This document shows positions 16,918 through 35,089 of a stretch of DNA of 64,000 nucleotides, piece after piece; positions within the stretch are counted from its first letter, which is position 1; each line of letters starts with the position of its first letter. The notes beneath the pieces were generated by a model that searched no databases, had not been told where the DNA came from, and saw only the letters and a program-made list of their open reading frames with translations. Origin of the DNA: Snodgrassella alvi (GTDB lineage Bacteria > Pseudomonadota > Gammaproteobacteria > Burkholderiales > Neisseriaceae); assembly GCA_002777825.1 (NCBI GenBank), contig MEIR01000089.1, positions 25,562 to 89,561 of the forward strand, written 5' to 3'. The position numbers were made by a program, and so were the translations under genes.

Positions 16918-18021
16918 ATGCTGATTTTACAAGCAGAACGCGACAGTTTGCTCAAACCGCTGCAAGCCGTAACCGGTATTGTTGAGCGTCGCCACACTTT
17001 ACCGATACTGTCTAATGTATTGTTGGAAAACCATCAGGGGCAAATCAAAATTCTGGCTACCGATCTGGAAATTCAGATTGATACCGTAGGACCAAAAAGT
17101 GAAGCAGAAGATTTTCGCATCACCACCAATGCCAAAAAACTGCAAGACATCCTGCGCGCCCTGCCTGCTGGTGCCATGGTGTCACTAGACTGGAACAACA
17201 ACCGTCTGGTGCTGAAAGCCGGTAAAAGCCGTTTTAATCTGCAAACCCTGCCAGCAGAAGATTTCCCGCTGATGAGCGTTGGCGAAAATGTCGATGCCAC
17301 CTTTACCCTGCCACAGGAAATGTTCCGCGAGATGCTGTCACAAGTACAGTACAGCATGGCTATTCAGGATATCCGTTATTATCTCAACGGCCTGCTGATG
17401 CAAACTGAAGGCAATCAACTGCGTCTGGTGGCTACCGACGGGCACCGTCTGGCCTATGCAGCCTGCAATATCGAAGCAGATTTGCCCAAAGCCGAAGTGA
17501 TTCTGCCCCGCAAAACCGTACTAGAGCTGTTTAAGCTGCTCACCTTCCCCGAACAGCCGATAACCATTGAACTTTTGAATAATCAGGTGCGTTTCCGCTG
17601 CAATGACACCATTATCGTTTCCAAAGTGGTAGATGGTAAATTCCCAGACTACAACCGTGTTATTCCATTAGATAACGATAAAATCTTTCTGGCCAATCGT
17701 ACCGAGCTGCTGGGTGCACTGGAACGAGCTGCCATTCTGGCCAATGAAAAATTCCGCGGTGCCCGCCTGCAAATCCAGCCCGGCCTGCTCAGTGTCACCT
17801 GTAACAACAATGAACAGGAAGAAGCACGCGAAGAACTGGAAATTGCCTATCAGGGCGATACACTGGAAGTGGGTTTTAACATCAACTATCTGATGGATGT
17901 ATTGCGCAATGTACATGCGGAAGACTTACAGCTAGCTTTTGGCGATGCAAACCGCTCCACCCTGTTTACCATCCCCAACAACCCCAATTTTAAATATATT
18001 GTCATGCCAATGCGTATTTAA
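16918..18021 (+). CDS. dnaN: DNA polymerase III beta sliding clamp
   Basis: 367 aa, three-domain clamp; synteny after dnaA. Confidence 0.95.
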   Translation: MLILQAERDSLLKPLQAVTGIVERRHTLPILSNVLLENHQGQIKILATDLEIQIDTVGPKSEAEDFRITTNAKKLQDILRALPAGAMVSLDWNNNRLVLKAGKSRFNLQTLPAEDFPLMSVGENVDATFTLPQEMFREMLSQVQYSMAIQDIRYYLNGLLMQTEGNQLRLVATDGHRLAYAACNIEADLPKAEVILPRKTVLELFKLLTFPEQPITIELLNNQVRFRCNDTIIVSKVVDGKFPDYNRVIPLDNDKIFLANRTELLGALERAAILANEKFRGARLQIQPGLLSVTCNNNEQEEAREELEIAYQGDTLEVGFNINYLMDVLRNVHAEDLQLAFGDANRSTLFTIPNNPNFKYIVMPMRI

Positions 18022-18048
18022 TCGTTATTCATACAATCACTTAGCTAT

Positions 18049-18099
18049 GGCCGTAAACTAGCCTGCTGTTTTTATAACAGCCTAATCTGGTTTACGGCC
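18049..18099 (+). terminator. Long inverted repeat (GGCCGTAAAC ... GTTTACGGCC) after dnaN followed by T-rich run; likely terminator/structured element
   Basis: perfect 10-bp arms separated by 31 nt; T-rich tail. Confidence 0.4.
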
Positions 18100-18326
18100 G
18101 TTTATTATTTACATTGAGCATTATTATCCATAAATAAAAATCAGCCAAAACATCATGTTAAATATAACAACTGGCTGAAAAAAAGCTGGTTTTCTGTTAT
18201 AATATTCTTTTGGTCAATTGCCCTGAAACAGGCCTGTGAATACTGGCAAACCGGAGTATGCTTATCATCATATCAAGGCTACAGGCGCATTTTTTAACGG
18301 CATGACCACTGCCCCAGATTTAGTAA

Positions 18327-20726
<2,400 letters not shown>

Positions 20727-20745
20727 AAAATCACCTGCTCACACC

Positions 20746-20775
20746 AAAAAGGATGGCACAGCCATCCTTTTTTGT
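20746..20775 (+). terminator. gyrB intrinsic terminator (AAAAAGGATGG-CACAG-CCATCCTTTTTT)
   Basis: perfect 11-bp stem + T-run directly after gyrB stop. Confidence 0.8.
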
Positions 20776-20894
20776 TCATTATAAGAGCGCTCGCTATAAT
20801 TAAGGTATAGGTTTATCCATCAGAAAATAAAGAAAACTAAATCATATGGTGATTTTATTGTTACATTCAGGCCAAGATTTGTACGGGTACTAAA

Positions 20895-21185
20895 ATGAAA
20901 AAAATTAATATGGTTATATACCCAATAATTTATATGATAGGACTTTTAATATTATTGTGTACTTCTGATAATAAATATGAGTGGATGCAGGAGATAGATA
21001 ATACGATAGTTCAATTGCCAGAAGATAGCTCTGCAAATACGGCGATTGGAATGACTATTTTAACTTTAATATTAGTTATTATGCAGATAGTGCGTTTCAA
21101 ATTTGCCAGAAGCCATCTTGAGAAAAGCACTGTACTTATACTGGCATTGCTTGCAATCATTGTATGGGCGATTAAATTTAGTTAA
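20895..21185 (+). CDS. Hypothetical small membrane protein at the left edge of the R-M island
   Basis: 96 aa, 3 predicted TM; very AT-rich. Confidence 0.3.
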   Translation: MKKINMVIYPIIYMIGLLILLCTSDNKYEWMQEIDNTIVQLPEDSSANTAIGMTILTLILVIMQIVRFKFARSHLEKSTVLILALLAIIVWAIKFS

Positions 21186-22023
21186 TAATTAATTTTATTT
21201 TATTTAAATTTTTTATACTAAATCTTACTTTAAGATTAAGATAGATAGTTCTGCTTGAAAACTTTTTCAACAAACAGCTTACTGCACTGGCACAGATTAA
21301 TCTACTACACAGCTATTACTACTCAAAAAGTGACGCCAATTCTTATCATAAAATACCAATACTTATTTTCATAAAGCGATTATAAAAAAATTATCGGCAC
21401 TTATTAAGTAAAGTGCTATCGAACAATCGATTTTATGCATGACGGTTATCAAAATCTATGGCGCTTTAAATCATTAAATATAATAAATAAGTATCATCGT
21501 AAAATATTAGGCATTGGCATCTGTCAGATGCCCCGTAAGTAGAATAACTTCGTTATCAGAACAAGCTAGATAAATATGCTGGCTACCAGTAAACAGACAG
21601 ATAAATAATGAATCAAAACCTACCGGAATAACGGTCATCAACTGGAAAAATTATATGGATATCCACAAACTATATTCAATCCAATAGCATATCCAAACCG
21701 GTATATTGCATAATCGTCTCTATCCAACAAAACTACTGAATTGATATCTTTTTAATAATCTGGTACCGGCAAGAAAAATAAGCGAAGAATGACTAATGCT
21801 TTATAACACTGTCCGCCCATCATACATTAAATAATATTAATCCAATCAAATATAAGACATTGAAACAGATAGCGTAATTTTCTGCGGGCGTTTTAACTGA
21901 GGATGGAATACTGACCATTCAATTGCCGATTGTATGCAAGCATACTAAGCACGCCTGAATTAATCAGTTTTAATCAGGAAGCGGAAACGTTAATTCCCAT
22001 TTCCTCTTCCTGATAGTTCGCAA

Positions 22024-25000
22024 TTAAATTTCGCCACCTATGCCTTTAAACTTCTCCACTAGCTCAACAATTTTCTGGTATACCTTTTGTTTTTTGGGCA
22101 AATATTGCGGATTAAGCGGGCTCATTTTGGGCAAGACTTCGTTCAGTTCCGTGCCGTTGTCAGTAGCATATTCACGCCTTAATGAGGATGCAATATAACG
22201 TTTAGCAGCAGCTTCATTTAAATTTTCATCACCAATTAATGTCTTAACCTCAGCCTGTTGCTGCTGTTGGGCATACTGGTAAAAGGCATCAATCATACTG
22301 GCTTTATCAGCAATAGTATTTAAATCGGTATGTTGAATAAATTCAATAACCAATTCCTCTTTGGCACGATAGCCTAAACTGGAGCGGATTAAGCGCTGTG
22401 CATCTTCAACAATGACTTGTTTATTCTTATCTTGCTTGTTCTGCTCAAAAATTAACTCCAGAATATAATCCAAATTGATTTCTTGCGATTTTAATAAATC
22501 CACCTCAAAAACCACATCATCCCAATCTATGGTTAGCTGCTCCTGTTCTTCAGCGGCTTTTTGTCTATACAGCCAGTCACGAATATCATGGTAAGTTGAG
22601 CGGTAATTCTGGATCGCTCTTTCTGTTGGTATCTTAATCTTTTGCAACCGTTCAAAAGCTTCATCTGAAACATAATACTGCGCTTTAAACTGTTCGACTG
22701 CTTGTTTATCTGTAGTATCCAGCTGTTGCAATGTCTTTAAAGCGATATATTCATCATAATTTTGCAATGCATTATCGGCACGTAAATACTGGCCAAATAA
22801 TTTAATAAACGCTTTTTTATCTTTTTCAGTAATAATCTGATCCGGATGAGGAAAACATTGCTGTAGCTCAGCCACAATAGCTAAATATCCGCTATGGATT
22901 TCACCGGAAATCTCATCGGTGTAACCCTGCATATGTTCCTCATAACTTTTTTCTAATACCACATCCTGAGTATTTCTTTGGCCAAATAGTTTGATGGCGG
23001 CAATAGTAGCTGGTTCTAAATCACGAAATGCCACAATATTACCAAACGCTTTAGTGTCATCGTAGATGCGATTGGTGCGTGAAAAGGCTTGGATTAAGCC
23101 ATGAAAACGTAAGTTTTTATCGACAAATAGCGTATTGAGGGTTGGCGCATCAAAGCCGGTTAGAAACATACCCACCACGATTAATAAATCAATTTCCTGC
23201 TTTTTAACGCGCAAAGATAAATCACGGTAATAATTCTGAAATTGCCCGCTGCTAACATCATAGTTGGATCTGAACATTTGATTATAATCATCAATCGCAG
23301 AAGCTAAAAATTCTTTCGCACTTTGATTCAACGCATTGGTTTCAAAGCTTTCATCAGCAATACCGCCTGCAGGGTCTTGTTGCTCATTAGCAGCAAAGGA
23401 AAAGATAGTAGCAATTTTCAATGGTTTACTGGATGATTGTTGCAGCTTTTTTAACGACTCATAATACAGCTTTGCCGCGTCCACACTGCTCACGGCAAAC
23501 ATAGCATTGAATCCTGTACCGTTACCATTTAAGCGGTGTGTTTTCTGGTTAAATTTGTTCAGAATATATTGGCTGATTTGCTCAATTCGTTTCGGATGCA
23601 GTAATGCTTGCTTATTTTCAGCGGCACTGAGTTTCTCCAGATTTTGCTCACATTCAATCGCTTTAAAATGCGGGCGTACATCATTGTAGTCGACTTTAAA
23701 TTTAAGTACTTTTTCATCGCGAATAGCGTCGGTAATTAAATAGCTATGCAACTCACGCCCGAATACCTTGGCAGTAGTTTGCTCGCCAAACGCATTAGCG
23801 TCCAGAATTGGCGTGCCGGTGAAACCAAATTGATAGTATTTTTTAAACTTTTTCTTAATATTTTTTTGTGCTTCGCCAAATTGTGAGCGATGTGCTTCAT
23901 CAAAAATAAACACGACCTGTTTATTATAGATCGCTAAATCATCCTTAGCTTTTATCAGATTATTGAGTTTTTGAATGGTGGTGACAATAATCTTATTATC
24001 CTGTTTTTCAATATTGCGCTCCAGTCCGGCAGTACTATCGGAACCATTGACACTGTCTTTTGAGAATTTCTGATATTCTTTCATGGTTTGATAATCCAGA
24101 TCCTTACGATCCACCACAAAAAACACTTTATCAATAAATTCCAGCTCGGTGGCCAGACGCGCTGCTTTAAAGCTGGTGAGAGTTTTTCCTGAGCCGGTGG
24201 TGTGCCAGATAAAGCCGCCACTATGTAAGCTACTCCAGTTTTTGGCCTGATAAGCACTGATAATCTGCCATAAAATCCGTTCGGTTGCCGCAATCTGGTA
24301 AGGGCGCATAATCAATAAAGTATCATTGATATCCAGAACGGAGTAAGTGATTAAAACACTTAACAGCACACGGCTGGCAAAAAAAGTGGCGGTAAAATCT
24401 TTTAAGTCTTTAATTGGTTCGTTTTCAACATTCGCCCAGTTTATGGTGAAATCAAAACTGGCCTTATCCCGTTTGGTGGTATTGGCAAAATACCGGGTAT
24501 CGGTACCGTTTGAAATCACAAATAACTGTAGATATTTAAACAGGGAATTGTCCTGATTAAAACTCTCTTTACTGTAGCGATGAACTTGACCAAACGCTTC
24601 ACGAATGGCAAGGCCACGTTTTTTAAGCTCCACATGTACTAAAGGCAGGCCATTAACTAAGATGGTAACATCGTAGCGATTAGCATAATTACCGGTTTGC
24701 TGAAACTGGCGAATCACCTGTAATTTATTGTTGCTGAGGTTTTTTTTATCGAGCAGATAAATATTCTGAATATGCCCATCATCAAACACAAAATCGTAGA
24801 TATGATTATGGTGAATTTTACGGCTTTTATCGACCATCGATTCATTCGGTTTATCCAGATACTCTAATACAAATCGCTGCCATTCCTCATCGCTAAACTG
24901 CATATTATTGAGCGTTTGCAACTGCACCCGAATATTGGCCAACAATTTCTGCTGATTATTCAGCTCAGGCAGATATTCATATCCTTGACGGCATAAATCC

Positions 25001-25125
25001 TGAATCAATTCGTTTTCTAATTCATTTTCCGTTTGATACGCTGCCGCCGGCTCTTCAAGCTTGGTGTAGTTATCTAAAATAATATAGTGATCAGTTTCGG
25101 CAATCGGGGTTGTGTAATTGACCAT
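22024..25125 (-). CDS. hsdR: Type I restriction enzyme R subunit (HsdR)
   Basis: 1033 aa; SF2 helicase motifs incl. Walker A TGSGKT and DEAH box ([10 protein letters not shown]); operon with hsdM/hsdS. Confidence 0.9.
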
Positions 25126-25128
25126 CGT

Positions 25129-26271
25129 CTATTCCTCCTCCTTCTCGTAAAAATTGTAATTTTCGAGTAAATGATTCAGTAAAAAGGCAACTATCTTTTT
25201 TTCAGGTTCGGAAGGCTCGGGCACCATTTCATTGGATAAGGTTGAATGACTGGTAAAATTGATTATGCGGGTTAAATATACTTCTCTATCATCAGGCAAC
25301 AAGTCTGACCAATGCCGATAGCCTAAAAAACAGGCGGTTTTTTCATACAAGTTACGTAATAGGGTAAAATGATATTTTTCAATTTTATTTTCCTCAATCG
25401 CTTGTTGCAGCAACTGCTTTAAATACAGATGATAGGAAAAACTGTGGTTTGAATCGCCTTTTTTGCCCTCTAATTCAAAATAGCCATCTGCCAATCGTCT
25501 TAGAATATAACCGTTTTTTAATCCTAACTCATTATAAAGTACATTATAAAACAGTGGATTATGGGTAGTGATGATAAATTTAATGTCAGATTCATTGGAT
25601 TTGATTAATTGGGCAATATCTACTGCCAATTGAATCAAATGATTCTCATCTAATGAGCTTACCGGATCATCAATAAAAATATAGCGTAATTGGTCAAATT
25701 CATTAGTAGAACGCTCGCTTTTTTCCGCAATATTGCGCTCGGCAATCACCAAACTAATCAAGGTGAAAAAAATACTCCAAATTAAGTTATTTTCTTCCCC
25801 CTTGGAGATTTTAATATTAGCAATACGCTGATCATTACCCGCTGCGAGCGAAAAAGTAACAGCGGAAAAATCCTCATTGAAATGCGGCGTCAGGTTTTGC
25901 TGAGTATACGATTGGAAGTAACGAGCAATATTTTGCTCCTGCCCTTGCTCTTTCAGAATCCAGTCCGTAAATGAATTGGGTTGTATGCTTAGCTGATGCT
26001 CACCTTGCTGATATTGATCGTTATTCCAGACAAATAAATCCTCGGTAAATGCGTTATAGTAAAGAATTTTATGCCGTGTTAAGGCTCCACTGTTTTCTTT
26101 ATCCGCTTTATCCTGCGATACAATAAACTCTTTAAACGCTTGCGATAAACGTGTTTTACCGGTGCCATTAAAAGCATAAATCAATTGGGCTTTGTTTCCC
26201 TTTTTCCCTTTTTGGGTGCTTTGGGCGTTTCTATCAATCTGCTCAGCAATATTTATCAGTGTATTATTCAT
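25129..26271 (-). CDS. ABC/Rad50-like P-loop ATPase embedded in the Type I R-M operon; PrrC/RloC-like anticodon-nuclease candidate
   Basis: Walker A AFNGTGKTRLS near N-terminus, Walker B + D-loop IFIDDPVSSLDENH, H-loop TTHN; occupies the prrC position between hsdS and hsdR. Confidence 0.5.
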   Translation of the reverse strand: MNNTLINIAEQIDRNAQSTQKGKKGNKAQLIYAFNGTGKTRLSQAFKEFIVSQDKADKENSGALTRHKILYYNAFTEDLFVWNNDQYQQGEHQLSIQPNSFTDWILKEQGQEQNIARYFQSYTQQNLTPHFNEDFSAVTFSLAAGNDQRIANIKISKGEENNLIWSIFFTLISLVIAERNIAEKSERSTNEFDQLRYIFIDDPVSSLDENHLIQLAVDIAQLIKSNESDIKFIITTHNPLFYNVLYNELGLKNGYILRRLADGYFELEGKKGDSNHSFSYHLYLKQLLQQAIEENKIEKYHFTLLRNLYEKTACFLGYRHWSDLLPDDREVYLTRIINFTSHSTLSNEMVPEPSEPEKKIVAFLLNHLLENYNFYEKEEE

Positions 26272-26288
26272 ATTCTGATTGTCTTGTG

Positions 26289-27533
26289 TTATTTATCTTC
26301 TACCTTAGGAAAGTTCAATAATAAATTACGATAGTACTCGTACTGTTTTTGGCGTAATTCAATCTCACGCGGTAAACCCTCGGTGATTGAATTAGTGAGT
26401 ACATCGAATTTATCTAGGATTTTGACAATACGGTCTTGTTCCTCGAGGGAGGGGATGGGCAAGCGATATTTAAGAATAGCTTCTTTATTTCCACGTGGCA
26501 TTTTTGCGCCTTTAGAATGTTGCATATTGTATTCAAAAAAATTATCATTTGCTAAGATATGATATAAATATCTGTAGGTTAACAGATTATTTTTTAGACG
26601 AATGACTAAAACATCACCATTAGTGCCTCCAGAAGAATCTGCCTGCCAAATTTTTTTTAAGTACGGACGAATATTTCCAATTAAAATATCATTGGTGAGA
26701 TATTCTGTAAAACTTCCTTCTTTAGGCACGTGATTTGAATCAGTTTTTCCTGCTCGGTTTTGTAATAAATTATCAACACCTACATAATTTTTTTCATTAA
26801 GTTTATCAAAGCTGATTCGAGTATTTGAATAATTAGCTACTTCGCCTAAAGCCTTCCACTCAACCTCATCCTCTTTAAAGGTCAACAATTGATCACGATA
26901 ATAGTTGTATTGTTTTTTCCGTGCTGTAAGCTCTGCTGTAAGCTCTGCTGTAAGCTCTGCTGTAAGCTCTGTAAATATGTCTAAGATACGGGTAATTTCA
27001 GTCTGTATGTGTAGCGGAGGAATAGGAATTTGAATTTTTTTTAATTCACTCATTGGTAAACTAATAACTGGCGAACCAACAATTTTTTTACTATATTCAT
27101 TTACTATATATTTTGAATTAAATAAATGAGATAAGTATTTTGAAACAACTATTTCTTGAACAGGTTTTATTACATAGACTCCTTCTTTGATATTCCAATT
27201 TTTAGGTTTTTCATCAATAACAGCTGTTTTTCCTACCGTCCCTGTCCCCGAAAATAAGATGTCGCCAGCCTCTAAATTCGAGCGGTTGTTTATAAGCTCT
27301 AAAGCTTGGTTATTAATTTTATCAGTCTTATCAAGGAATACTATCTTTCCATTCTGAATTTCTCGAACAGTTATATAGAAATTCATAGCATCGGATGTAT
27401 TCAACTTAAAGTTATTTCGTGGATTTAGCCCCGTTTTCAAAGATTTTATTACTTCCCCTAATGGTTTCCACTCAACCGCTACCCCATCAAGTAATTTAGC
27501 GATACTATTGTGCATATTTAAATTGTTACTCAT
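26289..27533 (-). CDS. hsdS: Type I R-M specificity subunit (HsdS) with two target-recognition domains and a TAEL-repeat central conserved region
   Basis: 414 aa; duplicated TRD architecture; central ...ELTAELTAELTAELTA...; conserved C-terminal YEYYRNLLL-type motif. Confidence 0.85.
   Translation of the reverse strand: MSNNLNMHNSIAKLLDGVAVEWKPLGEVIKSLKTGLNPRNNFKLNTSDAMNFYITVREIQNGKIVFLDKTDKINNQALELINNRSNLEAGDILFSGTGTVGKTAVIDEKPKNWNIKEGVYVIKPVQEIVVSKYLSHLFNSKYIVNEYSKKIVGSPVISLPMSELKKIQIPIPPLHIQTEITRILDIFTELTAELTAELTAELTARKKQYNYYRDQLLTFKEDEVEWKALGEVANYSNTRISFDKLNEKNYVGVDNLLQNRAGKTDSNHVPKEGSFTEYLTNDILIGNIRPYLKKIWQADSSGGTNGDVLVIRLKNNLLTYRYLYHILANDNFFEYNMQHSKGAKMPRGNKEAILKYRLPIPSLEEQDRIVKILDKFDVLTNSITEGLPREIELRQKQYEYYRNLLLNFPKVEDK
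26923..26970 (-). repeat. Perfect 4x 12-bp tandem repeat (GCTGTAAGCTCT) encoding TAEL repeats in the HsdS central spacer
   Basis: four identical in-frame 12-mers read directly from sequence. Confidence 0.95.
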
Positions 27534-27733
27534 TTCTTGCGACTTTCCTGTTTCGCTTTGTTCGCTAATGCATTGATGGTTTCCAGATAAGATATTTCTA
27601 CCCCACTAGAAATATTTCGTGAACTATGTTGTTGAACTGTTCGGATTTTCCGAACAGTTGCTTTTTTAAAGTAAGCATCAACACGAACTTTTTGATTATT
27701 AACATGATAAATTTGAATGTGATTATTGCTCAT
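27530..27733 (-). CDS. Small hypothetical protein translationally coupled between hsdM and hsdS
   Basis: 67 aa; start overlaps hsdM stop and stop overlaps hsdS start (ATGA-type overlaps); basic C-terminus. Confidence 0.4.
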
Positions 27734-29274
27734 GCTTCAATCTCCGCCACAATTGCATCAATTTGGGCGCGTAAGCTATCAATTTTAGCTACAGTGTCTT
27801 TTAATTCAGCATTAAGCTGGGTGATATCAATAATTTCGCGGGTATCTTCGGCTTCCACATATGAGCTCACCGATAAATTATAGTCATTGTCGGCAATGGT
27901 TTGATTAGCAACCGATTTGGCAAAATATTCGACGTCTTGCTTGCTGGCAAATACTTGCACAATTTCTTCAATATGCTTATCAGTTAGGACATTATTATTG
28001 GTTTCTTTTTTAAACAGTTTGCTGGCATCAATAAATTGCGTGGTTCTGACGGTTTTGTTTTTCGCCAGCACCAAAATATTAACCGCAATCGAGGTACCAT
28101 AAAATAAGTTTGGTGCCAGTGATATCACGGTTTCAACAAAATTATTATCGATTAAATATTTACGAATTTTTTGTTCGGCGCCACCACGATAAAAAATACC
28201 CGGAAAGGTAACAATCGCCGCCCGCCCTCGCTCAGACAAGTAACTTAATGAATGCAGAATAAAGGCAAAATCGGCTTTTGATTTTGGCGCAAGTATGCCA
28301 GCGGGGGCATATCGTTCATCATTGATTAAGGTTGGGTTATCACTGCCAATCCATTTAATTGAATAAGGGGGATTGGAAACAATGGCATCAAATGGCTTTT
28401 CGTTGCCAAATTTAGGATTAAGTAGTGTATCCCCCAAGACAATTTCAAATTTATCGTAGTTGATGTTGTGTAAAAACATATTCATACGGGCAAGATTATA
28501 GGTGGTATGGTTAATTTCCTGACCATAGAATCCGTCCTCAATGATATGCTTATCAAACTGTTTTTTTGCCTGTAATAATAAAGAGCCTGAGCCTGCCGCT
28601 GGGTCATAGATTTTATTGATCTTTGTTTGATTATGTAAGGCTAATTGTGCGATTAATTTGGATACATTCGGCGGAGTGAAAAATTCTCCTCCTGATTTAC
28701 CGGCTTTAGAAGCATAATTAGAGATTAAATATTCATAAGCATCACCAAACACATCAATATGGTTATCTTCAAATTGCCCAAAATCCAGCTCGGCAATGCC
28801 ATTAAGTACGGCGGCTAGCCGTTTGTTTTTATCGGCTACGGTATTGCCTAAGCGGTTGCTGGTGGTGTCAAAATCGGCAAATAACCCTTTAATATCGCTT
28901 TCGGAAGGATAGCCGATAGCTGAACTTTCAATCGCATTAAAAATATTGGCCAAGTGGGTATTTAAGTCTTTATTGGTATTGGCCTCGGCAACGGTATGGC
29001 AGAATAATTGACTTGGATAGATAAAATAGCCTTTGGATTTAATGGCATCCTGTTTGATTTCGTCGGTGATAGCATCATCGGGAATTGATTTATAATCAAT
29101 ACTCTCGTCGCCTGCTTGCATATAATCAGCAAAGTTTTCACTAATAAAGCGATAAAATAAGGTGCCAAGTACATATTGTTTGAAATCCCAGCCATCAACC
29201 GCGCCTCTTACTTCGTCGGCAATTTTCCATATTTGGCGTTGTAATTGGTCTCGTTGCTGGATACTGATGGCCAT
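27730..29274 (-). CDS. hsdM: Type I R-M N6-adenine DNA methyltransferase subunit (HsdM)
   Basis: 514 aa; N-terminal HsdM_N domain, AdoMet motif [10 protein letters not shown] and catalytic NPPY ([11 protein letters not shown]). Confidence 0.9.
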
Positions 29275-29721
29275 GATTAAATTCCAATAAAAATCTGTGT
29301 GTTAAATATTAGGCTTATTGTGATATTTAAGCGGTAATTGTGTATTTTATCAGTATGGCTGCTTATTGGTGCATCAGGGTACAAAATAATATACGCCACA
29401 AGGCAATAATTGTATTATGGGTTCTTCGATATCAAGGTTCTAGCCTGCATTCTATGTATATTGCTTTTATAAGTGGCGATTCATTCTGGCCGCAGATTCT
29501 GTAACAGCTCAGCACATTGCATTTTGCCTGTGCCGATTGAGCATGATTGATTTTCTGGTGTTTGCTGTATTGCTCAGTCATCAATTATTTAATGTTGGTA
29601 GCAGTTGCGAAGGAGGCATCATTACAAGTACTTTATTTTCTTCCATAGCACTTTTTGCAGTAATAAGTTGCATTGAATTTGGTATTTAACCGACTAAGGC
29701 AGAGAAAATCGAAGTGGTCAT

Positions 29722-29821
29722 GGCTGCGGATAATGGCGTTGTTACCCTGATGGGTGATGCAGTAGAAGCACAGCGGGCACTGATTGAATACGATGCCTTA
29801 AATGCGCAGGTAGATGTTTGA
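29722..29821 (+). pseudogene. Orphan diverged copy of the gyrB 3' end (last ~32 codons: KIEVVMAADNGVVTLMGDAVEAQRALIEYDALNAQVDV*)
   Basis: ~75-80% identical to 20623-20726 ([34 protein letters not shown]); no upstream gyrB body. Confidence 0.75.
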
Positions 29822-29837
29822 ATCACTTTATTACATC

Positions 29838-29866
29838 AAAAAAGATGGCATAGCCATCCTTTTTCA
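29838..29866 (+). terminator. Diverged copy of gyrB terminator (AAAAAAGATGGCATAGCCATCCTTTTT)
   Basis: same hairpin as 20746-20775 with 2 substitutions; right-end direct repeat of the island. Confidence 0.7.
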
Positions 29867-29936: not shown

Positions 29937-31163
29937 TCAGCCTTTAACACAGATAACCTGACGTAACTGATGTCTGATTTCTACCAGTTCCTGCTGTGCC
30001 TGCATTACGGCATCGATATCTTTGTACGCCATGGGAATTTCGTCGATTACTTCTGTATCCTTACGACACTCTACATGGGCGGTAGCCTGCATCTGATCGG
30101 CAACGGTGAATCTCCTTTTGGCTTCGGCGCGGCTCATTACCCGCCCTGCACCATGCGAACAGGAATGAAAACTCTCGGTGTTTCCTAAACCGCGCACGAT
30201 ATAACTTTTTGCGCCCATTGAGCCCGGTATAATTCCCAGTTCGCCCTCGCGTGCAGAAACGGCACCTTTACGGGTAACAAAAACATTGTGGCCAAAATGC
30301 CGCTCTTTTTGTACATAGTTATGATGACAGTTTATTGTTTGCAGATGCGTGGTAAACGGCACATCAATCACTTGGCGTAATGCAGCAATGGTGTTGTGCA
30401 TCATTACTTCACGGTTTACGCGGGCAAAATCCTGCGCCCAATGCACAGCTTCCAGATAATCACGACAATATTCGGTGCCTTCGGCAAAATACGCCAGATC
30501 GTTATTGGGCAGGTAGGTATCAATAAAATACTTTTTCATTTCTTTTTGTGCCAGTTCACTGAAATATTTACCAATGGCATGGCCAATACCACGGGAACCA
30601 CTATGCAGCATAATCCATACCTGATCGGTTTCATCCAGACAAACTTCAATAAAATGATTACCGCTGCCAAGTGTTCCCAGATGATGCAAGCTATTGGCTT
30701 TTAAAAAGCGCGGATATTTGCTGGTGAGTTTTTCAAATCCTGGCAATAGCTGCTGCCAGTACTCTTGTACAATCGGCGGCGGATTATGCCAGCTACCTTT
30801 ATCATATTTTTTATTACCCGGAGTAGAACCATGCGGTACTGCCTTTTCAATCGCCAGCCGCAATGGCATCAGGTCTTCCGGCAAATCCTGCGCGGTAAGT
30901 GATAACTGCACCGCCATCATGCCACAGCCGATATCTACGCCAACCGCAGCAGGTATAACTGCACCAGTAGTAGGAATCACGCTACCTATGGTAGAGCCTC
31001 GTCCCAGATGCACATCCGGCATTACAGCAATATGCTTAAAAATAAAGGGCAGTTCTGCGGTTTGCAGCAATTGTGTTTTGGCGATATCTTCTACTGGTAC
31101 GCCTTTAGTCCACATTTTTACCGGACGGGTTTTATCTTCTTTTAATACTTCATATTCTTGCAT
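29937..31163 (-). CDS. rtcB: RNA-splicing ligase RtcB (3'-phosphate/5'-OH RNA ligase)
   Basis: 408 aa; conserved RtcB metal/GTP-binding motifs (HxGxG region SGNHF, CHHNY, GAGR). Confidence 0.9.
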   Translation of the reverse strand: MQEYEVLKEDKTRPVKMWTKGVPVEDIAKTQLLQTAELPFIFKHIAVMPDVHLGRGSTIGSVIPTTGAVIPAAVGVDIGCGMMAVQLSLTAQDLPEDLMPLRLAIEKAVPHGSTPGNKKYDKGSWHNPPPIVQEYWQQLLPGFEKLTSKYPRFLKANSLHHLGTLGSGNHFIEVCLDETDQVWIMLHSGSRGIGHAIGKYFSELAQKEMKKYFIDTYLPNNDLAYFAEGTEYCRDYLEAVHWAQDFARVNREVMMHNTIAALRQVIDVPFTTHLQTINCHHNYVQKERHFGHNVFVTRKGAVSAREGELGIIPGSMGAKSYIVRGLGNTESFHSCSHGAGRVMSRAEAKRRFTVADQMQATAHVECRKDTEVIDEIPMAYKDIDAVMQAQQELVEIRHQLRQVICVKG

Positions 31164-33066: not shown

Positions 33067-33139
33067 TTTTTGAAACAGGAATCGAACCTGTCACAGATTG
33101 GTTTGGTGCCAATTGCTCTATCCAGTGAGCTTTTCAAAA
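33067..33139 (-). ncRNA. tRNA-like element (cloverleaf with Trp-type CCA anticodon but A8, A33 and no encoded CCA) in leader of the rtcB operon
   Basis: minus strand: TTTTGAA-AA-GCTC-ACTGGATA-GAGC-A-ATTGG-CACCAAA-CCAAT-CTGTG-ACAGG-TTCGATT-CCTGT-TTCAAAA-A; perfect 7-bp acceptor, 5-bp anticodon and T stems; canonical T-loop. Confidence 0.55.
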
Positions 33140-33283: not shown

Positions 33284-33299
33284 TGCAATTACTGTACCA
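33284..33299 (-). promoter_or_regulatory. Candidate sigma54 (-24/-12) promoter for the tRNA-like/SPFH/rtcB operon
   Basis: minus strand TGGTAC-AGTAA-TTGCA vs consensus TGGCAC-N5-TTGCW with exact GG-GC spacing; adjacent to divergent rtcR; AT-rich UAS region upstream. Confidence 0.35.
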
Positions 33300-33460: not shown

Positions 33461-35089
33461 ATGAACAGGAAAAACGTTGTATTCGGTTTTTTGGGCAATG
33501 TGCTTGACCAGCGCGGTAAAGGCAGAAAACGCTGGGGGCGCTGGCGGCCAACAGTTGATGTCTGTAATCATCCGGAATTGCCGGTATCTCGCTTTGAACT
33601 GCTTTATCACGTCAATGATAACGAGTTACTGGCTGAAATTATTCAGGATATTAAAACCATTGCCCCGGATACGCAGGTTAATCCGGTTGCAGTACATATA
33701 CATGACCCATGGGATTTTGAGGAGGTGTATACCTGTTTACTGGATTTAGCCAAAAGCTATCAATTTGATTATGAACAGGAGAATTATTATTTAAATATCA
33801 CTACCGGCACGCACGTTATGCAGATTTGCTGGTTTTTGCTGGCAGAATCACGCTTTTATCCGGCCAGACTGCTGCAATTATCGCCAACCAAAGGGGTAGC
33901 ACAGCCAGAAACGGTGTTAACTGAGCCGGCAGAGCATCAACAGCTATGCAGCCGCGGACAAATCAATATCATTGACCTGAATCTGAACCGCTACGACCAG
34001 ATTCTGACCCGCTTTCAGCAATACGCCGGCCAAGCTACTGAATTACTCAAATCCGGCATTGCCACCAGAAACCCGCATTACAATCAGCTAATTACTGAAA
34101 TAGAACAGGTAGCCAGCCGCTCGCATGCGCCTATCCTGCTATGCGGCCCTACCGGCGCCGGTAAATCTTTTCTTGCACGGCAAATTTACCAGCTTAAGCT
34201 GAATCAGCATCAGATAAGCGGCCAGTTTGTGGAAATTAACTGCGCTACTCTTACCGGTGATAATGCCATGTCCACTTTATTTGGTCATAGCAAAGGGGCT
34301 TATACGGGTGCCAGCATGGCCAGAAGCGGCCTGCTCAAACAGGCTGATAACGGCCTTTTGTTTCTGGATGAAATCGGCGAACTGGGATTAGATGAACAGG
34401 CTATCCTGCTCAAAGCCATTGAAGAAAAACATTTTTATCCGTTGGGCTCGGATAAACTGGTTTCCAGCCAGTTCCAGCTCATTGCCGGCACCAATAAAGA
34501 CTTAAAACAGGCAATTGCCTGTGGTGCATTCAGGGAAGATTTATACGCACGGATTAATTTATGGAGCTATCAACTGCCCGGGCTGGCAGAACGTAAAGAA
34601 GATATTGAACCAAATATTGATTTTGAGCTGGCACGCTATGCTAAGGAATATGGCACTATGCCACGCTTTAATCAGCAATCCAGAACCCGCTATGTAAATT
34701 TTGCCACTTCGGCTGCTGCACGATGGACGGGCAATTTCCGTGAGCTCACCGCTTCCATTACCCGCATGGCTACACTGGCCACGCAGGGTAATATCACTTT
34801 GACACAGGTTGAAGACGAAATTCAGCGCTTACAGCAACACTGGCAGCAGACAACACCCGCCGATGCACTGATTCCGGTTGAAATTGATGAATTCGACCGC
34901 TATCAGCTAGAAAAGGTGATTGAAGTATGCCGCAAAAGCCGAACTTTATCCGAGGCCGGCCGCTATCTGTTTGCGGTATCACGGGCACAGAAACAGCGTG
35001 CCAATGATGCCGACAGGCTGAAAAAATATCTGGCCAAGTTTGATTTAAGCTGGGAGCAGATAAAAGATAGTGCCTGTAGCAGCGATTAA
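33461..35089 (+). CDS. rtcR: Sigma54-dependent transcriptional activator RtcR (N-terminal CARF domain, AAA+ sigma54-interaction domain, C-terminal HTH)
   Basis: N-terminus MNRKNVVFGFLGNVLD matches RtcR CARF start; Walker A GPTGAGKS, GAFTGA-like GAFREDLYARINLW motif. Confidence 0.9.
   Translation: MNRKNVVFGFLGNVLDQRGKGRKRWGRWRPTVDVCNHPELPVSRFELLYHVNDNELLAEIIQDIKTIAPDTQVNPVAVHIHDPWDFEEVYTCLLDLAKSYQFDYEQENYYLNITTGTHVMQICWFLLAESRFYPARLLQLSPTKGVAQPETVLTEPAEHQQLCSRGQINIIDLNLNRYDQILTRFQQYAGQATELLKSGIATRNPHYNQLITEIEQVASRSHAPILLCGPTGAGKSFLARQIYQLKLNQHQISGQFVEINCATLTGDNAMSTLFGHSKGAYTGASMARSGLLKQADNGLLFLDEIGELGLDEQAILLKAIEEKHFYPLGSDKLVSSQFQLIAGTNKDLKQAIACGAFREDLYARINLWSYQLPGLAERKEDIEPNIDFELARYAKEYGTMPRFNQQSRTRYVNFATSAAARWTGNFRELTASITRMATLATQGNITLTQVEDEIQRLQQHWQQTTPADALIPVEIDEFDRYQLEKVIEVCRKSRTLSEAGRYLFAVSRAQKQRANDADRLKKYLAKFDLSWEQIKDSACSSD

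Follow-up and report, generated by a model that had tools for sequence, protein, structure and literature searches.

A prrC gene was found in a 64,000-nucleotide stretch of Snodgrassella alvi DNA (contig MEIR01000089.1 of assembly GCA_002777825.1, positions 25,562 to 89,561; hereafter the window). Sequence comparison indicates that this gene very probably encodes a PrrC-family anticodon nuclease, which lies inside a type IC restriction-modification (R-M) operon and likely acts as its counterpart does in Escherichia coli. The protein belongs to the PrrC family, keeps all of the catalytic and nearly all of the other essential residues, has type IC partners, and is under purifying selection. A previous reading made from the letters alone (the sequence-only reading) had guessed that the gene in this slot encodes a latent anticodon nuclease of the PrrC type, and the profile match, the mapping of residues on E. 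coli PrrC (EcoPrrC) and the type IC neighbours support that guess. The system is already known and this gene already correctly annotated, and little is thereby added to PrrC biology; a literature search found no paper treating both Snodgrassella and PrrC.

Family identity and essential residues

The PADLOC PrrC hidden Markov model (HMM) matched residues 4-379 of the S. alvi protein with 469 bits (E = 2.1e-141; model positions 20-351 of 372), and the next-best PADLOC family scored 41.6 bits. In Pfam, the protein matched AAA_13 above the gathering cutoff (4.9e-13), the family that was also recorded for all 120 PrrC homologues among the matches listed, and an NCBIfam search returned only noise (holB and LolD at E>0.02). 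When 5.8 billion proteins were searched, an entry with 100% identity was retrieved, which NCBI names "anticodon nuclease [Snodgrassella alvi]"; thousands of homologues approximately 60% identical, from many phyla, were retrieved as well. Over the full length, identity to EcoPrrC was 58% by BLASTP and 61% by MAFFT. Pairwise ratios of nonsynonymous to synonymous substitution rates (dN/dS) between this prrC and those of nine relatives ranged from 0.10 to 0.19, indicating that the gene is maintained by purifying selection.

Several relatives in JGI carry the name "wobble nucleotide-excising tRNase", which is the description of RloC, and RloC shares AAA_13 and the catalytic residues with PrrC; the S. 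alvi protein might on these grounds be an RloC-type enzyme that excises the wobble nucleotide and responds to DNA damage through a built-in switch that does not depend on R-M. What defines RloC is that its ATPase domain is interrupted by a coiled-coil/zinc-hook (Cys-X-X-Cys) and that it is seldom found with R-M genes (PMC3458546). The S. alvi protein is 380 aa in length, has a single Cys (C314) and no CxxC, and with approximately 115 residues from Walker A to the C-loop has no long insert; it is embedded in an R-M operon. These features and the PrrC HMM score effectively refute an RloC identity, which is extremely improbable, and the JGI label on the relatives is a mis-transfer.

A generic defence ABC or AAA ATPase without RNase function (AAA_15/OLD-, AAA_21/AbiEii- or Septu PtuA-like) was also considered. 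Sub-threshold Pfam matches to AAA_21 (4.6e-4; 20.8 bits, cutoff 27) and SMC_N were observed, and PtuA heads appeared in structure comparison (see below). The AAA_21 and SMC_N matches are confined to the ATPase motifs common to these families and score far below the PrrC match, and the C-terminal domain has the complete PrrC/HEPN catalytic set. No AAA_15 match was found in Pfam, and no PtuA or OLD match in PADLOC at E<=1. The sequence-only reading had named placement in a family without a nuclease, for example AAA_15/OLD, as fatal to its guess. On the profile and residue evidence, AAA_15/OLD, AAA_21/AbiEii and PtuA were rejected, and the chance that the protein is such an ATPase is close to nil.

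Residues were numbered by reference to an E. coli locus (L001:6767-7957; hsdM-hsdS-"anticodon nuclease"-hsdR), whose 396-aa protein has GKT47, LSKGE173, SSLD222, KFIITTH251 and KYGDSNKSFSY294 at the exact published EcoPrrC positions, and conservation was counted in an alignment of 121 family members. The essential residues of EcoPrrC have been defined by experiment (PMC1484252, PMC3025547). They comprise the catalytic triad R320/E324/H356, conserved in all PrrC homologues (PMC1484252), and in the nuclease domain also H295, H315, N321, R349 and N352 (PMC3025547). In the S. alvi protein the triad is formed by R306-x3-E310 and H342, the latter 32 residues past E310, a spacing identical to that of EcoPrrC (R-x3-E-x31-H). 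R306, N307 and E310 were invariant in 121 of 121 members, H342 was likewise invariant, and R335 was present in 120 of the 121. The accessory residues H281, H301 and K285 (EcoPrrC H295, H315 and K299) are kept, and EcoPrrC H297 is replaced by Y283, Tyr being the family majority at this position (92/121). The sequence-only reading had held that the C-terminal Arg, Glu and His residues do not exactly match the PrrC spacing. This was an error, as R319, R329 and E330 had been inspected, which lie approximately 15-25 residues too far downstream; the string that it quoted corresponds to residues 317-343, and R306-N-L-Y-E310 sits 11 residues upstream of it.

PrrC has been assigned to the HEPN superfamily (PMC3710099). 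In agreement with the Rx4-6H motif of that superfamily, R335-x6-H342 lies in a domain predicted to be all-helical.

The lysine-anticodon recognising peptide (LARP), a motif defined in PMC3025547 and PMC1950546, marks the tRNA-Lys-specific subset of PrrC proteins. In the S. alvi equivalent (Table 1), D287, S288, F292 and Y294 (EcoPrrC numbering) are kept, and the two differences, Y285K and K290H, fall at positions that are variable family-wide. This near-intact LARP supports tRNA-Lys as the probable target. PrrC homologues have been proposed to differ in substrate specificity (PMC1484252), and the two substitutions could be taken to mean that an active S. alvi PrrC has an RNA target that is not, or not only, tRNA-Lys. 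With the tRNA-Lys-recognition residues retained, and with tRNA-Lys still the target of a PrrC that shares just 35% identity with EcoPrrC (PMC11555353), such a change of target is quite unlikely.

The N-terminal nucleoside triphosphatase (NTPase) domain has, in addition to Walker A, the C-loop ISKGE (residues 155-159), Walker B and the D-loop (198-208), the H-loop of the KFIITTH type (231-237) and the PrrC box (approximately 57-84). The ABC/Rad50-type motifs reported in the sequence-only reading, FNGTGKT (34-40), IFIDDPVSSLD (198-208) and TTHN (235-238), were all found in place; the ABC signature (C-loop) ISKGE and the PrrC box had been omitted from it. Conserved residues on the NTPase side include, in EcoPrrC numbering, K46/T47/R48, E88, W93, N95, K168/K171, D215/D216, S220, D222, N224 and H225, and conservation extends to K245, T250, H251, N257, E262, D287/S288, F292, Y294, H295, K299 and H315. 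The same essential columns vary little or not at all among the 121 members, and every EcoPrrC-essential NTPase residue is kept except D94, which is N83 in the S. alvi protein.

The operon runs in the order hsdM-(67-aa open reading frame, ORF)-hsdS-prrC-hsdR, with all genes on the minus strand. The ORF coordinates bear out the 380-aa frame and the tight gaps described for it, with 17 bp between the hsdS stop and the prrC ATG and 3 bp between the prrC stop and the hsdR ATG. HsdM is 77% and HsdR, over its full length, 70% identical to the PrrC-linked subunit of E. coli L001, and the conserved regions of HsdS can be aligned to its E. coli prr-type counterpart, the target-recognition domains being divergent. 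The Pfam matches of HsdR to HSDR_N, SWI2_SNF2 and EcoR124_C had E-values from 1e-45 to 5e-64, the last (PF12008) at 5.5e-64. TAEL repeats, which set the spacer length, are a hallmark of type IC enzymes (EcoR124I/II). The EcoR124_C domain in HsdR and the TAEL repeats in HsdS indicate a type IC enzyme.

Linkage to R-M was also seen in species-representative genomes, in which at least 585 relatives were found and 80 PrrC loci were taken from among them. Of these loci, 79 contain hsdR, the exception being a truncated contig, and 71 have hsdM upstream in the same orientation. prrC is described in the literature as always linked to R-M, and this count agrees. Four loci (L022, L040, L067, and L073) have approximately 0.85-1.26 kb between prrC and hsdR, which suggests that an extra gene is inserted there.

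The number of TAEL copies varies by strain, with one fewer in L012 and two in E. coli L001. In addition, a stretch of approximately 420 bp in hsdS (about 27034-27453) could not be aligned with that of strain L093, which is otherwise 98-99% identical, indicating a swap of a target-recognition domain relative to L093. The copy variation and the domain swap imply strain-specific R-M specificity.

The 67-aa ORF in the apparent gap between hsdM and hsdS had no Pfam match; gene calls in relatives L007-L010, L092, and L093 likewise include it. RhuM-like genes are said to accompany PrrC operons (PMC3710099), and the ORF could be a remnant of such a gene. A scan of the window for sigma-70 promoters gave a chance level of matches (33 versus 36.4 expected), and no promoter was assigned.

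Table 1. Positions in the window of prrC, its motifs and the surrounding features (the Olokun row refers to locus L174)
Feature	Position	Strand	Basis or remark
prrC, 380-aa anticodon nuclease	25129..26271	minus	ATG start, intact ORF; PADLOC PrrC and Pfam AAA_13
N-terminal ABC/Rad50-like NTPase domain, residues ~1-268	25468..26271	minus	motif positions
Walker A FNGTGKT, residues 34-40 (GKTR to 41)	26152-26172	minus	NTPase motif
LARP-equivalent KKGDSNHSFSY, residues 270-280	25432..25464	minus	9/11 identical to EcoPrrC 284-KYGDSNKSFSY-294
R306-N307-L-Y-E310, catalytic Arg/Asn/Glu	25342..25356	minus	EcoPrrC R320/N321/E324; codons CGT AAC TTG TAT GAA
R335-I-I-N338-F-T-S-H342, HEPN Rx4-6H motif	25246..25269	minus	EcoPrrC R349/N352/H356; codons CGC ATA ATC AAT TTT ACC AGT CAT
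hsdM, 514 aa, type I (IC-like) methyltransferase subunit, first operon gene	27730..29274	minus	Pfam N6_Mtase 4.4e-119, HsdM_N 2.8e-18
67-aa ORF, apparent hsdM-hsdS gap	27533..27733	minus	overlaps hsdM stop and hsdS start by 4 bp each
hsdS, 414 aa, specificity subunit with type IC central TAEL-repeat spacer	26289..27533	minus	Pfam Methylase_S 2.8e-36
Perfect 12-bp x 4.2 tandem repeat in hsdS, encoding TAEL units ...TELTAELTAELTAELTA...	26922..26971		Tandem Repeats Finder (TRF) score 100, 100% matches
hsdR, 1033 aa, type IC restriction subunit, last operon gene	22024..25125	minus	Pfam HSDR_N, SWI2_SNF2, T1R_D3-like, EcoR124_C
Island of ~9 kb with hsd/prrC cargo	~20774-29837		gyrB/rtcB slot
Left boundary repeat: gyrB 3' end and hairpin terminator	20610..20775	plus	hairpin 20746-20772
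Right boundary repeat: degenerate gyrB 3' end and terminator copy, beside rtcB stop	29700..29865	plus	hairpin 29844-29858
Olokun alternative in the slot	L174:11426-14858		PADLOC OloA/OloB
rtcB	29937..31163		confirmed
Band7/SPFH gene, 539 aa	31214..32833		confirmed
rtcR	33461..35089		confirmed
tRNA-like element between rtcR and band7-rtcB	33067-33139	minus, rtcB strand	ARAGORN tRNA-Trp(CCA)

Asparagine 83 and the activity of the allele

The PrrC box (EcoPrrC 68-94) is specific to the family, and E88, W93, D94 and N95 are essential in EcoPrrC (PMC3025547). The box is present in the S. alvi protein (YYNAFTEDLFVWNND) with E77, W82 and N84 conserved and N83, encoded at 26023-26025, at the position of D94.

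Several points weigh against the reading of the protein as a nuclease that acts as EcoPrrC does. The D94N and D94E forms of EcoPrrC are non-toxic, D94N having abolished toxicity in a yeast assay (PMC3025547). Asn at this position is the minority state, found in 10 of 121 family members, and relatives approximately 94-96% identical toggle between Asp and Asn; the N83 allele could therefore be attenuated. The PrrC homologues of Neisseria meningitidis and Xanthomonas campestris were non-toxic in yeast or E. coli despite having the Arg-Glu-His triad (PMC3025547, PMC1484252), so conservation of the motif is no guarantee of overt activity. Finally, the structure of the S. alvi protein predicted with AlphaFold2 from a 39-sequence alignment was of moderate quality, with a predicted local distance difference test score (pLDDT) of 67.6 and values below 50 in the P-loop region.

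The loss of toxicity on replacement of D94 and the minority state of Asn would fit a PrrC-family protein whose allele is attenuated or inactive through Asn83 and contributes little or nothing to defence. The near-identical S. alvi allele in L093 differs by 3 nt, all nonsynonymous (G62E, N83D, and Q86K), one of which restores Asp; that in L092 differs by 2 nt, both also nonsynonymous. The excess of nonsynonymous differences against these two alleles (5/5) was not significant (p ~0.25), and no recent selection is claimed. Against loss of activity, the ORF is intact and the low dN/dS values speak for purifying selection on prrC. Asn also recurs with full-length genes in separate bee-gut lineages (P0004, P0005, P0008, P0024, P0025, P0026, P0031, P0034, and L017), which suggests that it is tolerated in the background of this clade. 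Moreover, the yeast assay reads overt toxicity at high dosage and not regulated activity within an R-M complex. An attenuated or inactive allele is thus considered unlikely, and N83 is treated as a caveat on the level of activity and not as a sign of gene decay.

The predicted structure was used solely as a weak consistency check on the PrrC assignment. It has an alpha/beta N-terminal part, and residues 279-371 form four helices that bear both motif pairs. When the whole-chain model was compared with the PDB by Foldseek, the top matches were the ATPase heads of Rad50, SMC and PtuA at low template modelling (TM) scores (0.23-0.31); no match was obtained for the nuclease domain, and no solved HEPN domain was matched. 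A sequence search of the PDB with the protein returned nothing at E<=0.01, and thus no solved PrrC or RloC structure was available for comparison.

Defence island and rtc locus

In all Snodgrassella contigs found to carry the hsd/prrC cassette with enough flank, the gene order was rtcR-band7-rtcB-[hsdM-hsdS-prrC-hsdR]-gyrB-dnaN-dnaA. The sequence-only reading had regarded the anticodon nuclease beside an RtcB repair locus as a possible functional pairing and had cautioned that the adjacency may be coincidental. The genes do adjoin, and the caution was justified; the pairing is positional and comes from the insertion of an island. rtcB was located within 10 kb of prrC in 2 of the 80 PrrC loci, both from S. 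alvi. Conversely, no prrC was present in a set of 80 generic rtcB loci (1.04 Mb), which came from a metagenome scan with S. alvi RtcB that returned no Snodgrassella loci (best identity, 69%). A Gilliamella cassette 89% identical to that of S. alvi sits among unrelated genes.

In other Snodgrassella strains (L174-L183), the slot has identical flanks, rtc and gyrB, and is occupied by OloA and OloB of the Olokun system (PADLOC 4.9e-82 and 1e-185). Homology between the hsd/prrC and the Olokun (L174) island types stops at 20773 and resumes at 29838. The island is bounded by direct repeats approximately 80% identical (82% over 158 bp by BLAST). They consist of the final ~140 bp of gyrB with the hairpin and resemble an att-like duplication or the scar of a recombination event; among the island ORFs of at least 80 aa, no integrase stood out. 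The sharp boundaries, the variable slot and the repeat indicate an ancestral convergent arrangement, gyrB->terminator<-rtcB, which a defence island then entered at the 3' end of gyrB. In Snodgrassella the gyrB/rtcB junction is a hotspot for defence islands, with hsd/prrC and Olokun alternating. prrC stands beside rtcR, the tRNA-like element, band7 and rtcB because the island was inserted there. Nothing in the comparative data points to co-selection of PrrC and RtcB; cross-talk in trans is biochemically plausible.

PrrC proteins 80-89% identical to that of S. alvi were present in Gilliamella (Gammaproteobacteria), and one 81-83% identical in Apibacter (Bacteroidota) (P0021, P0023, P0028, P0030; L011, L015-L020). 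Gilliamella, Apibacter and Snodgrassella (Betaproteobacteria) all share the bee gut, and such identity among co-resident bacteria indicates that the cassette was exchanged horizontally in that community in recent times. On the other flank of the island (16918-20726), dnaN is followed directly by gyrB after a 314-bp gap with no recF between them, and the arrangement dnaA-dnaN-gyrB was seen in all Snodgrassella loci examined.

No further ORF of at least 80 aa, and hence no rtcA candidate, was found between rtcR and rtcB; the intergenic region between rtcB and hsdM was not covered. The tRNA-like element in this locus scored 49 bits with the Rfam tRNA model in a local search and was missed in a whole-window run at the gathering threshold; its acceptor stem consists of A-U pairs only. 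Every Snodgrassella rtc locus, also in the Olokun strains, has the element, with invariant stems and an 'anticodon' varying among CCA, CCT, and CTG. An 'anticodon' that changes from strain to strain suggests that the element is a tRNA mimic with no decoding role, similar to the YrlA Y RNAs of the Salmonella rsr-yrlBA-rtcBA operon. A sigma-54-like sequence, TGGTACAGTAATTGC, lies at 33285-33299 (minus strand), 146 nt upstream of the element; matches of this kind are about as frequent in the window as expected by chance. In three unrelated metagenomic rtcB loci (L165:7522-7599, L167:8029-8103, and L145:2779-2851), ARAGORN also called a tRNA on the rtcB strand, 1.5-2.5 kb upstream of that gene; one of the three has an undeterminable anticodon. 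tRNA-like leaders may thus recur in rtc operons.

It is rather doubtful that PrrC and RtcR/tRNA-like RNA/Band7/RtcB form a working damage-and-repair circuit in Snodgrassella despite their insertion-derived adjacency. If they did, RtcB would be induced and would reseal PrrC-type ends, turning the PrrC 'suicide' into a reversible arrest, and the leader, a tRNA-like RNA whose anticodon loop varies by strain, could be a bait or sensor for anticodon nucleases.

Probable mechanism and relation to known systems

The biology of PrrC has been described in E. coli (PMC1484252, PMC3710099, PMC12707154). By homology with EcoPrrC, latency, the trigger, tRNA-Lys as the target and activity of the N83 allele would be expected of the S. 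alvi protein as well. PrrC would be made together with the R-M enzyme and kept latent by association with the type IC enzyme, and a phage anti-restriction factor that disables the R-M complex would lead to its release. The N-terminal ABC-type NTPase domain would be the switch relaying the activating signal, which in E. coli involves GTP hydrolysis and dTTP.

The gene represents a textbook "guardian" of R-M, a second line of defence against phages, in a new host, and the side observations (the tRNA-like element, the hotspot, the cassette exchange and the D/N polymorphism) may be worth more than the main finding. A PrrC/type IC cassette is documented as circulating among the unrelated bee-gut bacteria Snodgrassella, Gilliamella and Apibacter with approximately 80-90% protein identity, and a defence-island hotspot is defined at the 3' end of Snodgrassella gyrB. 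The natural D/N polymorphism at a PrrC-box residue essential in E. coli can be used to probe the tuning of latency versus activity. A tRNA nuclease present together with an RtcR-controlled RtcB ligase also offers a natural system on whether RNA repair makes abortive infection reversible.

Among known systems, RloC (Geobacillus, Acinetobacter) resembles the S. alvi protein in combining an ABC-ATPase with a HEPN-type anticodon nuclease, in the catalytic Arg/Glu/His set, and in AAA_13. It is set apart by a long coiled-coil/zinc-hook insert, excision of the wobble nucleotide, rare R-M linkage and regulation by DNA breaks, and is about twice the length of PrrC.

PrrC170 of Klebsiella quasipneumoniae, which is 35% identical to EcoPrrC and likewise lies in a type I R-M operon, defends against phages T1 and T7, targets and depletes tRNA-Lys, and is bypassed by phage tRNA-Lys (PMC11555353). 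The S. alvi protein, known here from sequence alone, is much closer to the EcoPrrC prototype than PrrC170 is.

The closest likeness is to the E. coli prr locus (EcoprrI hsdM-hsdS-prrC-hsdR), with which the S. alvi operon shares gene order, tight spacing, triad spacing, accessory residues, a LARP identical at 9 of 11 positions and the presence of a PrrC box. Compared with EcoPrrC, the S. alvi protein is 16 residues shorter, lacking residues ahead of Walker A and within the acidic linker around residue 60, and has Asn for Asp94 and Tyr for His297. The S. alvi operon differs from the E. coli locus in having the extra 67-aa ORF and four TAEL-type repeats in HsdS instead of two, and its host is a bee-gut betaproteobacterium.

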